From positions 67,120 through 131,119 of the forward strand of contig CAZTXY010000001.1 in the NCBI GenBank assembly GCA_964617815.1: a DNA stretch of 64,000 nt. Reading direction: 5' to 3'. This DNA is from an uncultured Candidatus Saccharibacteria bacterium. Its GTDB lineage: Bacteria > Patescibacteriota > Doudnabacteria > UBA920. How positions within the stretch are numbered: the stretch's first letter is position 1; the number at the start of each line of letters is the position of its first letter. Positions 31,287 through 55,579 of this stretch are shown here, one piece after another. The notes under the pieces are model-generated. The model was not told where the DNA came from. It did no database searches and saw nothing but the letters and a program-made list of their open reading frames with translations. Both the position numbers and the translations under genes were made by a program.

Positions 31287-31360
31287 CTGTCATCCCGAGC
31301 TTGTCGAGGGATCTCTGAGCCATGATTAAGATCCTTCACTTCGGTCAGGATCACAGTGAC
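31287..31360. repeat. MITE-like palindromic element (copy 2)
   Basis: Reads ctgtcatcccgagcttgtcgagggatctc ... gatccttcacttcggtcaggatcacag. Confidence 0.65.
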
Positions 31361-31444
31361 GTAAGATACACTTGCTATAAATAGGTTCTTTCGACAACTT
31401 TTTTCTTTAGGAATATTTTATCTGCAACCTGCTAGAATGCGTTT

Positions 31445-32140
31445 ATGCTTTCTACTATTTGGAAATTCATTCTAGAGACTATTGCACCAGTTACCTGTGT
31501 AAGCTGTGGAAAACACGGCCAACACCTCTGCTTTATTTGCCAGTCAAATTTACCAATAGCCAAACAGTTTTGCATTGTCTGTGGCAAAATTAGCTTGCTT
31601 GGCATTACCCATAATAAATGCAAGATCAAAAAAGATCCATACGGAGTTCTAGCTATTTTTGAATACAAAAATCCTAGCATTACTAAGCTAATTATTCGTG
31701 GAAAATATTACTTCATTCCCGACTGCTACTTCACTTTAGGAAGTGCGCTGTGTGAATACTTAAAACAACAGCATCTAGAAATATACTTTAAAAATTATAT
31801 TTTATGTCCCATCCCGTTAAGTAACGCAAGAGAACGTTGGCGCGGATTTAACCAATCCCAAATTATTGCTCAAGTTATAGCTAATAAATTAAATTTACAG
31901 ATGGAGCCAGCCTTAGTACGAACACGTTGGACTAAAACGCAAAAAAATCTAAAACAAGCGGCTCGGCAGAAAAATGTTACAGGGTGTTTTGGCCTAAATA
32001 ATCATATCTCTGTTTCTGGAAAATCAATTCTATTAATTGATGACGTGGTTACAACTGGTGCCACACTTCGCGAAGCTACTCTCACTCTCAAACTAGCGGG
32101 CGCCAAAAACGTATGGTGCCTTGCAGTCGCCCGCGACTAA
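31445..32140 (+). CDS. comF: ComF family phosphoribosyltransferase (competence protein F-like)
   Basis: N-terminal Cys4 zinc ribbon and a C-terminal PRTase motif LLIDDVVTTGATL. Confidence 0.8.
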   Translation: MLSTIWKFILETIAPVTCVSCGKHGQHLCFICQSNLPIAKQFCIVCGKISLLGITHNKCKIKKDPYGVLAIFEYKNPSITKLIIRGKYYFIPDCYFTLGSALCEYLKQQHLEIYFKNYILCPIPLSNARERWRGFNQSQIIAQVIANKLNLQMEPALVRTRWTKTQKNLKQAARQKNVTGCFGLNNHISVSGKSILLIDDVVTTGATLREATLTLKLAGAKNVWCLAVARD

Positions 32141-32191
32141 CATTGACCAAATACATTTATTTCACTATAATTACTGAGCAATTTCAAGTTT

Positions 32192-32253
32192 GGAGAGGTC
32201 GCATAGTGGGCAGTAGCAGCGGTTTGCTAAACCGCTGTACGATTGTAAAGCTG
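32192..32253 (+). pseudogene. truncated copy of the tRNA-Ser(GCU) 5' half
   Basis: ggagaggtcgcatagtgggcagtagcagcggtttgctaaaccgctgtacgattgtaaagctg matches the first ~60 nt of the intact gene 13 nt downstream at about 85% identity. Confidence 0.7.
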
Positions 32254-32266
32254 AATATGTTAATTT

Positions 32267-32360
32267 GGAGAGGTCGCATAGTGGCCTAGTGCGGCGGTTT
32301 GCTAAACCGCTGTACGGTTGTAAAGCCGTACCGAGGGTTCGAATCCCTCCCTCTCCGCCA
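32267..32360 (+). tRNA. tRNA-Ser (anticodon GCU)
   Basis: Acceptor stem GGAGAGG/CCTCTCC, anticodon loop ttGCTaa, long variable arm, T-arm GGTTCGAATCC, and an encoded CCA. Confidence 0.9.
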
Positions 32361-54118: not shown

Positions 54119-54259
54119 AGAATTTATAGCTAAAAAGTCTTAAAATTAGACCAAAAGTTAGCTTTATTATATCACAACAACTCCATTTTTTCCAAATTTT
54201 AACAAAAAAGCACCGAGAAGTCTCTCGCGTGCCAAAAAACTCAAATATTGCAAAGCACT

Positions 54260-54550
54260 TTAGCCTCGTGGGCGAATAAATTGCGTTTTAATTTTTGGAA
54301 CAATCTCAGTTTGTTGAGACTCCGGAATTTTGTTTTCAATAACTGGTTTGGAAATAGGTTTAGTAACTGCAGGTTGAATTGTCGTAGTATTTGACGAAGC
54401 CGACGCCCCCACACCCTGCAATTTTGCTTTACCACCTGGTAAGCTAAAACCATTTTGCACCATTACAAACAAAACCAAAATAGCCGCACTCCCCCCAATT
54501 GCTAAAAGATGGGTAAGCCCAAAACCAAATTTTGTGTTACTACTCATCAT
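54260..54550 (-). CDS. small membrane protein (candidate pilin-like subunit)
   Basis: 96 aa with one hydrophobic helix (KFGFGLTHLLAIGGSAAILVLFVMV). It is the first gene of the cluster on the minus strand. Confidence 0.35.
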   Translation of the reverse strand: MMSSNTKFGFGLTHLLAIGGSAAILVLFVMVQNGFSLPGGKAKLQGVGASASSNTTTIQPAVTKPISKPVIENKIPESQQTEIVPKIKTQFIRPRG

Positions 54551-54587
54551 ATTTTATTGTTTTTTTGTTTCGGAAAACTTTACTTTC

Positions 54588-55454
54588 CTATAGTATAGCA
54601 TATTTATCGTCTTTCTGCAAGCTTTTACTCGCAACAAGGTTTTTATATAACGCTATCCACTGCTCCAGCGACAATTCTTGCGGACGCGCCTGGGGCTTAA
54701 CTTCAATTGTGTCTAGTAATTTTAAAACAACATCTTTTTCAAGTCCATAATTATTCGTTAAAGTATTATGAATTTGTTTTCTTTTTCCAGCAAAACAACT
54801 GCGCACAAGTCTAAAAAACTTTTTACTGTCCAAATCTTTAATTTTACTCTCCCCTTGCAAATGAATTTGCAAAATACTACTGGTAACTTTCGGTACCGGA
54901 AAAAAATCTCGCGCAGGAACAGTTTGCAAGATTTTAGCACTGCCATACAACTGAATAGACAAACTTAATAAATTGTTTCTCCCCGCTAATGCTACAGCAT
55001 TTTGAGCAACTTCTTTTTGAATCAGTATTGTTATCGTAATAGGCTTATGCTTTGCTAAAAGCAAAAGTTGGATAATTTTTCCTGTAATATAGTAAGGAAT
55101 ATTAGCCACCACATGATAGCGCGGGTAATCGGCCAAGGCATCCTCAAAATTAAAACGGAGTGCATCTGCAATTTCATATTGAAAATTTTTGTGCGCTTTT
55201 TTTAGGCCTTTTAAAATTGACAAAAAACGTTTATCTTTTTCAATAGCCAAAACAAATGCCGACGTATCCAGTAACCTACTCGTCAAATTTCCAATCCCGG
55301 GACCAATCTCCAAAACTGCATCCCCTGACTGCCTTGGCACGCTGTCAACCATATCTTGTAGTACAAAATCGTTAAGCAAAAAATTCTGCCCAAAAGTTTC
55401 ATTTGGTTTAAGCTGATAGCGTTTTAATAGGTCTTTTAATTGCTCAATGGTCAT
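54588..55454 (-). CDS. rsmA: 16S rRNA (adenine1518-N6/adenine1519-N6)-dimethyltransferase
   Basis: SAM-binding motif LEIGPGIGNLT. KsgA family. Confidence 0.9.
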   Translation of the reverse strand: MTIEQLKDLLKRYQLKPNETFGQNFLLNDFVLQDMVDSVPRQSGDAVLEIGPGIGNLTSRLLDTSAFVLAIEKDKRFLSILKGLKKAHKNFQYEIADALRFNFEDALADYPRYHVVANIPYYITGKIIQLLLLAKHKPITITILIQKEVAQNAVALAGRNNLLSLSIQLYGSAKILQTVPARDFFPVPKVTSSILQIHLQGESKIKDLDSKKFFRLVRSCFAGKRKQIHNTLTNNYGLEKDVVLKLLDTIEVKPQARPQELSLEQWIALYKNLVASKSLQKDDKYAIL

Positions 55455-55490
55455 AGGTATTTGTTATGCATTACTATAACTGTCTACTTA

Positions 55491-55579
55491 CTGTCATCCT
55501 GAATGAAATGAAGGATCTCAAAATGTAGATTGAGATTCCTCGACAAGCCTGCCTGCCGGTAGGCAGGCTCGGAATGACA
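55491..55579. repeat. MITE-like palindromic element (copy 4)
   Basis: ctgtcatcctgaatgaaatgaaggatctca ... gagattcctcgacaagcctgcctgccggtaggcaggctcggaatgaca. Confidence 0.75.

Follow-up and report, generated by a model that had tools for sequence, protein, structure and literature searches.

What are the short palindromic repeats that recur between the genes of a 64,000-nt stretch of contig CAZTXY010000001.1 (hereafter the window), part of a Doudnabacteria-like Patescibacteria genome, and which machinery could have put them there? An earlier note on this DNA had reported four copies of a 75-90-bp palindrome and had taken them for non-autonomous miniature inverted-repeat transposable elements (MITEs) or for elements like repetitive extragenic palindromes (REPs). 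All four copies are present where it had placed them. They form a genuine repeat family that is intergenic and has no gene of its own, and the term 'REP-like', with no transposase in the window, was well chosen. We consider it likely that the window elements are inverted doublets and solo copies of the CGTC/TGTC-tagged REP superfamily, now known as SRM (NTS in Neisseria), and that they represent the gene-less form of the Ssn hairpin system. What is new here is a G.A-type, Patescibacteria member of this known kind.

The family consists of three inverted doublets, one solo unit within miaA and one probable diverged solo unit (Table 1). Its basic unit is not the 75-90-bp palindrome but a hairpin of 29-49 nt, which can be written as Y-TGTC, AT-Y-C-Y, GA, loop, GA, R-G-R-AT, C-TC. 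The stem has 5 bp, followed by tandem G.A/A.G and then by 0-2 further bp. Loops range from 3-7 nt up to 27 nt, the longer ones with nested hairpins, and in the window they either measure 7 nt or contain an extra GC hairpin. A doublet consists of two such self-folding units that are inverted relative to each other and carry their tags on the outer sides (an 'HH dimer'), and all three doublets of the window are HH heterodimers. Using a strict structural detector (GTCA, a stem of 5-7 nt, GA, loop, GA and the reverse-complement stem) we found seven units in the window, compared to 0.2 expected from 200 first-order Markov randomisations. All seven start with YTGTCAT or CTGTGAT, with GTC intact in six of them. 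The C directly after the palindrome (GGAT-C or GAAT-C) is present in all seven as well as in the probable eighth unit. The 3-nt unpaired tail reads CTC, CTT or CCC, and the tag is TGTC (CGTC in the probable eighth). This eighth unit is intergenic and lies immediately past a terminator-like hairpin; as its detector class has a background of about five per window, the call rests on the tag, the tail and the intergenic position.

The ends of the reported copies can also be recovered by their letters. The terminal pattern CTGTCATCCYGA with at most one mismatch has seven matches in the window against 0.35 expected, and six of them are ends of the reported copies. A match at 27797 was rejected as chance: it lies within an open reading frame (ORF) and has no hairpin. 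The termini described as shared are indeed conserved, except that the right tag of doublet 1 is CTGTGAT instead of CTGTCAT and that the right end of doublet 3 reads ...GGAATGACAA (tag TTGTCA). The inner inverted pair, likewise described as shared, departs from that description in doublet 1, where it reads GAGGGATCTC...AAGATCCTTC.

The doublets could fold in two ways, as one long hairpin or as two unit hairpins. In doublets 2 and 3 the left stem is ATCCT/AGGAT and the right stem is ATTCC/GGAAT, and each is compensated within its own unit; the long inter-unit hairpin, unlike the unit stems, gains mismatches. Since left and right units carry different, internally compensated stems, selection acts on the unit hairpins and not on the long palindrome. 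The long hairpin that the earlier note proposed is unusually stable as single-stranded DNA for doublets 2 and 3 (z between -4.1 and -4.5), largely because of the nested GC hairpins in the right units, but for doublet 1 it is no better than shuffled sequences (z of -0.7 and -0.5). We also scanned viral contigs with the pattern GTCATYCYGA-N(7-30)-GARGRATCTC, in which two Y and two R positions of the stem are left free, and obtained matches in at least 120 loci. Among the viral-contig matches listed, both Y/R pairs were complementary in 161 of 173 copies ascertained by this pattern, compared to an expected 25%. The stems thus covary within each unit hairpin. The commonest loops among these matches were GCGCAGC, GCGAAGC and GCGGAGC, which we take to be of the d(GCGNAGC) type, a very stable DNA mini-hairpin.

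Table 1. Positions, strands and parts of the repeats in the window (position 1 is its first nucleotide)
Feature	Position	Strand	Sequence	Remarks
Doublet 1, left unit	31287-31315	+	CTGTCATCCCGAGCTTGTCGAGGGATCTC	tag TGTC, stem ATCCC/GGGAT, tandem G.A, tail CTC
Doublet 1, spacer	31316-31327			12 nt
Doublet 1, right unit	31328-31356	-	CTGTGATCCTGACCGAAGTGAAGGATCTT	tag GTC mutated to GTG (31352-31354); stem ATCCT/AGGAT
Doublet 2, left unit	41008-41036	+	CTGTCATCCTGAATAAAATGAAGGATCTC	
Doublet 2, spacer	41037-41049			13 nt
Doublet 2, right unit	41050-41087	-	CTGTCATTCCGA-TCCGCCGACTGGCGGA-GAGGAATCTC	stem ATTCC/GGAAT; GC mini-hairpin 41061-41074 nested in loop
Doublet 3, left unit	55491-55519	+	CTGTCATCCTGAATGAAATGAAGGATCTC	
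Doublet 3, spacer	55520-55531			12 nt
Doublet 3, right unit	55532-55580	-	TTGTCATTCCGA-GCCTGCCTACCGGCAGGCAGGCTTGTC-GAGGAATCTC	nested GC hairpin 55544-55565
miaA solo unit	16847-16875	+		one complete unit within 63-nt in-frame insertion 16836-16898
Probable diverged solo unit	39638-39673	-	GCGTCATTCTGA-ACCTACGAAAGGGT-AAAGAATCCC	tag CGTC, stem ATTCT/AGAAT, one G.A changed to A.A
AGTACTN arrays	9857-9922, 12247-12280, 13456-13468, 21320-21346, 59384-59417, 59491-59517			
AGTACTN-related repeats	6541-6579, 39708-39735, 61330-61380		ACTAGGNACTAG	

This anatomy matches that of the CGTC-tagged REP superfamily (Di Nocera, De Gregorio and Rocco 2013, BMC Genomics 14:522, PMC3733652), which includes dRS3 of Neisseria and RPE-4 and RPE-6 of Rickettsia. 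In its members the hairpin stem, whose first two positions are AT, is preceded by an unpaired CGTC tag (often TGTC, or else CCTC) and followed by an unpaired tail of 3 nt. HH dimers with the tags outside predominate, heterodimers are frequent, copies occur in frame within genes and no transposase is associated with them (PMC3733652). The window units share the TGTC/CGTC tag, the AT at the start of the stem, the 3-nt tail, the HH heterodimers, the intragenic copy and the lack of a flanked transposase. Their tail is CTC compared to CCA in the CGTC families, and Patescibacteria are not among the five phyla for which CGTC repeats were listed in 2013 (Proteobacteria, Chlorobi, Bacteroidetes, Spirochaetes and Thermotogae; PMC3733652).

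The unit is very widespread, and the family goes far beyond a few copies without shared termini. The exact 27-mer GTCATCCYGAGCTTGTCGARGGATCTC occurs in at least 120 genome loci (one genome per species) from about ten phyla. The record titles among the matches listed name Kiritimatiellia, Verrucomicrobiota, Chloroflexota/Thermomicrobiales, Bacteroidota, Rhodothermales and Lentisphaerae, and further Clostridia, Alphaproteobacteria, Fibrobacter, Gemmatimonadales and three groups of Patescibacteria. Among these matches 81 of the 120 genome loci contain at least two units within 8 kb, and the outward (HH) orientation of pairs was the most frequent (58), ahead of tandem (32) and inward (TT) pairs (22). 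That the same 27 nt recur in about ten phyla points either to horizontal spread or to a very tight constraint on the interface between protein and DNA. In a full-text literature search for the unit sequence only unrelated primers were returned. Units were also common in contigs classed as viral, for example L048 with six units in 10.6 kb and L055 with five units; these may be insertions or else targets of Ssn from the host.

The genes next to the units point to an enzyme. In the 120 genome loci, which had been fetched by the unit alone, a family of proteins of about 95 aa recurred among the neighbours and was second only to ABC-transporter-like ORFs. Pfam assigned these proteins a lone GIY-YIG domain. 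All nine complete GIY-YIG genes, read by eye, are preceded by a plus-strand unit at a distance of 0-70 nt from the ATG, which in eight of them is 0-40 nt, and for eight of the nine a minus-strand unit overlaps or just follows the stop codon. As these loci were ascertained by the unit, we conducted an independent test on 80 metagenome loci that had been fetched by the protein alone, using a scan with two sequences, and counted the units within 150 nt. A plus-strand unit was found upstream in 45 of 73 loci and a minus-strand unit downstream in 54 of 75, with a background of 0.023 per window and strand. Units on both sides with the tags outward were found in 39 of 68 loci (background 0.023 per flank).

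Such an arrangement is known from the Ssn proteins, GIY-YIG nucleases of about 94 aa that act on SRM/NTS (Chenal et al. 2025, Nat Commun 16:2388, PMC11893778). SsnA has 94 aa and a single GIY-YIG domain (cd10448). It binds the NTS CGTCATTCCCGCGMAVGCGGGAATCYRG only as single-stranded DNA and on one strand, cuts a few nucleotides upstream and is inactive on duplex DNA and RNA. Binding and cutting specific to single strands are known from the enzymes of Neisseria and Wolbachia; for SsnA, binding depends critically on the C that follows the palindrome and cutting on the 3 nt that precede it. At least one SRM lies near 71% of the Ssn homologs, and 42% have one on both sides. The layout NTS-ssnA-NTS was noted to be IS-like (IS, insertion sequence), and in Neisseria SsnA restricts transformation (all PMC11893778). 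Like SRM/NTS, the units described here have an oriented (C/T)GTC tag that abuts a palindrome starting with AT, and a C right behind the palindrome; in other genomes they bracket a gene for a single-domain GIY-YIG protein of about 95 aa with the tags outward, and they occur in hundreds of gene-less copies with a wide phyletic spread. Unlike SRM/NTS, the window units carry the tandem G.A inside the stem and have variable or nested loops. Their host is a Patescibacteria genome and the window has no ssn gene, and one would not automatically expect them to share the role in transformation.

The flanks of some of the homologs are canonical NTS-type units (TTGTCATTCCCGCGAAAGCGGGAATCCA), and those of others are of the G.A type found in the window, as for the gene at 5783-6088 in L209 (Marinifilum fragile JCM 15579) and in L188 (Parcubacteria). 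Both flanks of one cassette were of the same type in 47 of 47 cases (25 GA/GA and 22 fully paired on both sides), compared to 23.6 by permutation. The spacers of outward-facing pairs show a bimodal distribution, with 147 pairs at 0-100 nt and 58 pairs at 250-400 nt. The spacers of 245-501 nt that match the GIY-YIG hidden Markov model all do so with a near-full-length match. Since units elsewhere bracket ssn in the same outward orientation, the window doublets with their spacers of 12-13 nt can be read as the gene-less counterpart of the SRM-ssn-SRM cassette. The description of Ssn nucleases with their hairpin motifs dates only from 2025, and the window adds an occurrence of the repeats in Patescibacteria. 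Since units of the tandem-G.A type, which the published pattern misses, stand on both sides of about half of the Ssn-like genes sampled, the published repeat censuses are probably too low.

Ssn-like proteins are also encoded by other Patescibacteria (Parcubacteria, Uhrbacteria). Proteins of the candidate phyla radiation (CPR) are ~66-72% identical to homologs of Alphaproteobacteria, Dehalococcoidia and KSB1. Such identity between CPR and these groups suggests that the nuclease, too, was transferred horizontally. In one Parcubacteria metagenome-assembled genome (L188) two Ssn-like genes, at 4567-5037 and 6621-6974, lie 2 kb apart on one contig, and their proteins are about 70% identical to homologs of Bradyrhizobium, Rhodopseudomonas, Dehalococcoidia and KSB1. 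A solved-structure search with an Ssn-like protein gave no match, a scan of viral contigs for ssn with narrower peptide patterns gave two weak partial matches only, and no Ssn-like ORF was seen in 1.1 Mb of unit-bearing viral loci (L001-L123).

Several observations weigh against reading the window copies as the gene-less form of the Ssn system. The published SRM pattern, HGTCWYN(0-2)YYVSBRHN(0-5)WNVSBRGN(0-2)RNCYNB, which was derived from 29 genomes of four phyla, matches the canonical NTS but none of the seven window units and only about one in 700 GA-type units; it matches 24 of the 83 short fully paired units near ssn genes. The four CGTC families have perfect stems of 8-9 bp and loops of 4-5 nt (PMC3733652), unlike the window units with their interrupted stem and loops of 3 to 27 nt. 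A search of spacers of intermediate length for decayed ssn yielded no partly deleted cassettes that would link cassettes to doublets, and two short ssn matches in spacers turned out to be N-terminal parts of intact genes. As no intermediates were found, the derivation of the doublets by deletion is something that we infer. Neither the 64-kb window nor ~60 kb of related contigs (L124-L129, L330, L331) contains an ssn gene or a remnant of one. Because the window has no such gene, we also infer both cleavage in this organism and mobility driven by Ssn. The kinship of the sampled GIY-YIG proteins to SsnA of N. meningitidis is presumed from their size, their single domain and the canonical NTS-type flanks of some homologs, and an action on GA-type units would be extrapolated from the enzymes of Neisseria and Wolbachia. 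Finally, a cut-and-paste reaction like that of IS200/IS605 does not follow directly, as GIY-YIG enzymes do not become covalently joined to DNA in an intermediate and the cut made by Ssn is confined to one strand, 5' of its motif.

With these points in mind, the gene-less form of the Ssn system would work as follows. A region would become single-stranded during replication, repair or DNA uptake, and each unit would fold on its own strand. A small single-domain nuclease of the Ssn family would then bind the unit, for which it would need the palindrome and the following C, and would nick the single strand on the 5' side of the tag, a few nucleotides away, for which it would need GTC. An Ssn enzyme may act on the window copies in this organism and may spread or remove them. 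The right unit of doublet 1, in which GTC has become GTG, would be expected to bind but to be cut poorly, judging by the Neisseria data. We can go one step further and propose, tentatively and with clear reservation, that gene-less doublets are non-autonomous elements that are moved in trans or removed by Ssn GIY-YIG nucleases, that SRM-ssn-SRM is their autonomous form and that the GA-type, evolving together with enzymes of its own, is a separate specificity lineage. If this were true, there would be a class of prokaryotic mobile elements built on a GIY-YIG nuclease instead of a transposase, spread over about ten phyla and capable of in-frame insertion into genes that are essential in the reduced genomes of CPR bacteria. 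Whichever of horizontal spread and a tight protein-DNA interface accounts for the identical units, either would be useful for picking pairs of enzyme and site as single-strand DNA tools.

The same geometry of two inverted hairpin units with a short spacer is also that of REPINs (Bertels and Rainey 2011; Nunvar 2010; Ton-Hoang 2012), in which REP doublets are mobilised by RAYT, an HUH (Y1) tyrosine transposase akin to that of IS200/IS605. There, too, hairpins of single-stranded DNA are recognised by a small enzyme dedicated to them, units flank the gene of this enzyme, and gene-less doublets far outnumber that gene. The logic of a single-stranded hairpin is plausible for the window copies, GCGNAGC loops are typical DNA mini-hairpins, and Y1 transposases do occur in CPR and other phyla (PMC6006769). 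However, RAYT is an HUH/Y1 enzyme with covalent intermediates and a GTAG tag, where the units described here have TGTC/CGTC, and REPINs are mostly inherited vertically, unlike units found in about ten phyla. Di Nocera et al. (PMC3733652) came across no case of CGTC units on the flanks of a RAYT gene. A scan of 2.1 Mb of unit-bearing loci for the HUH...Y motif gave one candidate (L079), which does not adjoin units, and the gene that is flanked by units encodes a GIY-YIG nuclease. We therefore regard a REPIN origin as very unlikely.

Comparison with relatives indicates that doublets come and go over short distances. The spacer between pcrA and ksgA has 152 nt and includes doublet 3 in the window, whereas in the related contig L330, whose KsgA is 97% identical, it has 20 nt and no doublet at all. 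The flanking coding DNA is nearly identical in the two, with no evident duplication of 3 bp or more. A more remote relative with 63% identity (L331) has a degenerate tag at this spot, so that a loss in L330 is as possible as a gain in the window. In either case doublets are gained or lost between relatives with 97% identical KsgA.

Presence and absence between relatives, together with the short, palindromic, intergenic and multi-copy nature of the repeats, is also what would be expected from the classical MITE of the earlier note, that is an internally deleted DDE-type IS with terminal inverted repeats that is mobilised in trans by a transposase encoded elsewhere. Against it, the junction of the filled and the empty site shows no clear target-site duplication of at least 3 bp, no DDE-type gene was found as a neighbour of units, and no IS with matching ends (CTGTCATCC...) was seen near units in ~2 Mb. 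Solo units and tandem or inward pairs are common, the stems covary within the unit, which is not required of terminal inverted repeats, and the conserved ends are the tags of two inverted self-folding units. We attach hardly any credence to the classical MITE; the earlier call of REP-like and non-autonomous elements is correct, and they are not MITEs derived from an IS.

The copy at 16847 had been listed as a fragment. It is in fact a complete single unit inside an insertion of 21 codons on the plus strand of miaA (ORF 16662-17639), an essential gene for tRNA modification, where it is read as ...SCHPELVEGS.... This insertion is not found in MiaA of relatives (302-306 aa); in L127, a more distant relative, the site is empty (302-aa MiaA). 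The site is filled in L124, with 3 differences across the 63 nt of the insert compared to 13 across 105 flanking nt, though these numbers are small. Other Patescibacteria MiaA proteins (P0003, P0004, P0009, P0023 and P0027) have different inserts of up to ~80 residues in the same surface loop after GKVxGxW, and the peptides SCHPRLHG... and VILSERSESKDP mark those inserts as unit-derived. This indicates that the MiaA loop may have been hit repeatedly and independently, or that it is uniquely permissive. Peptides like SCHPELVEGS may also turn up as spurious short 'hypothetical proteins' in public annotations. A palindromic repeat that lies in frame in a housekeeping gene and keeps its frame recalls the Rickettsia palindromic elements (RPE), of which RPE-1 is longer (~100-150 bp) and only RPE-4 and RPE-6 are CGTC-type units.

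The location of the doublets raises a further alternative, according to which the elements act mainly as RNA, either as hairpins in the 3' untranslated region that stabilise or terminate the upstream transcript or as a small structured RNA, so that their copy number would reflect selection and not mobility. All three doublets lie between co-directional genes, 26-101 nt past the upstream stop codon, and CGTC REPs elsewhere, presumably transcribed, are likewise situated near the 3' ends of co-directional genes (PMC3733652). However, the doublets have no T-tract and received no terminator-like call, and doublet 1 sits behind a terminator-like hairpin that is already present upstream of it. Rfam gave no match over any copy, neither at the gathering threshold nor at E up to 5. 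As the doublets are symmetrical, their orientation is unconstrained; one unit is translated within miaA, SsnA does not bind RNA (PMC11893778), and identical 27-mers in about ten phyla would be left unexplained. A primary role as RNA is accordingly improbable in our judgement, while a secondary effect on transcripts is possible. A hammerhead-like or kink-turn RNA, considered because of CUGA...GAA, was rejected, because the conserved blocks are arranged in another order than in a hammerhead and no match to any model was obtained.

The genes named as neighbours of the repeats in the earlier note could mostly be confirmed. Pfam identified ClpC-like, ComF-like, RadA-like, DsbA-like, UvrD/PcrA and RsmA/KsgA proteins, in agreement with clpC, dsbA, pcrA and ksgA, but the 386-aa 'beta-propeller' protein had no Pfam match. 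The ksgA gene itself (54588-55454) is an ORF of 288 aa compared to ~275 aa in most homologs, and local alignments to most homologs cover only 93-97% of it.

The window copies share a leader of ~9 nt (CCATCCTA / CTATYCYA) just 5' of the tag (31278-31286, 40999-41007, 41088-41096 and 55581-55589), which resembles the 5' stem arm; the leader CCATCCTA is not conserved at units in other genomes. Elsewhere we encountered 'head-only' stutters, in which TGTCATCCCGAGC is repeated ahead of a full unit (e.g. L153, L250). The small GC hairpin CCGCC-RNYY-GGCGG has eight matches in the window against 0.16 expected (4306-4319, 23425-23438, 23529-23542 and the one within doublet 2). It occurs solo, adjoining ACTAGGAACTAG motifs, and, in doublet 2, nested within the loop of the right-hand unit, from which it seems that the unit loop tolerates or attracts a second mini-hairpin.

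Other repeated features of the window are distinct from this family. A second copy of the 5' half of tRNA-Ser(gct), with 89% identity, is found at 32189-32251, 75 nt upstream of the complete gene (32267-32360), and only intact tRNA genes are reported by ARAGORN and Rfam. In a second repeat family the heptamer AGTACTN is repeated in tandem, with 3-5 copies per array, and the arrays take up short intergenic gaps, with 22 pattern matches in the window compared to 2.0 expected (Table 1).

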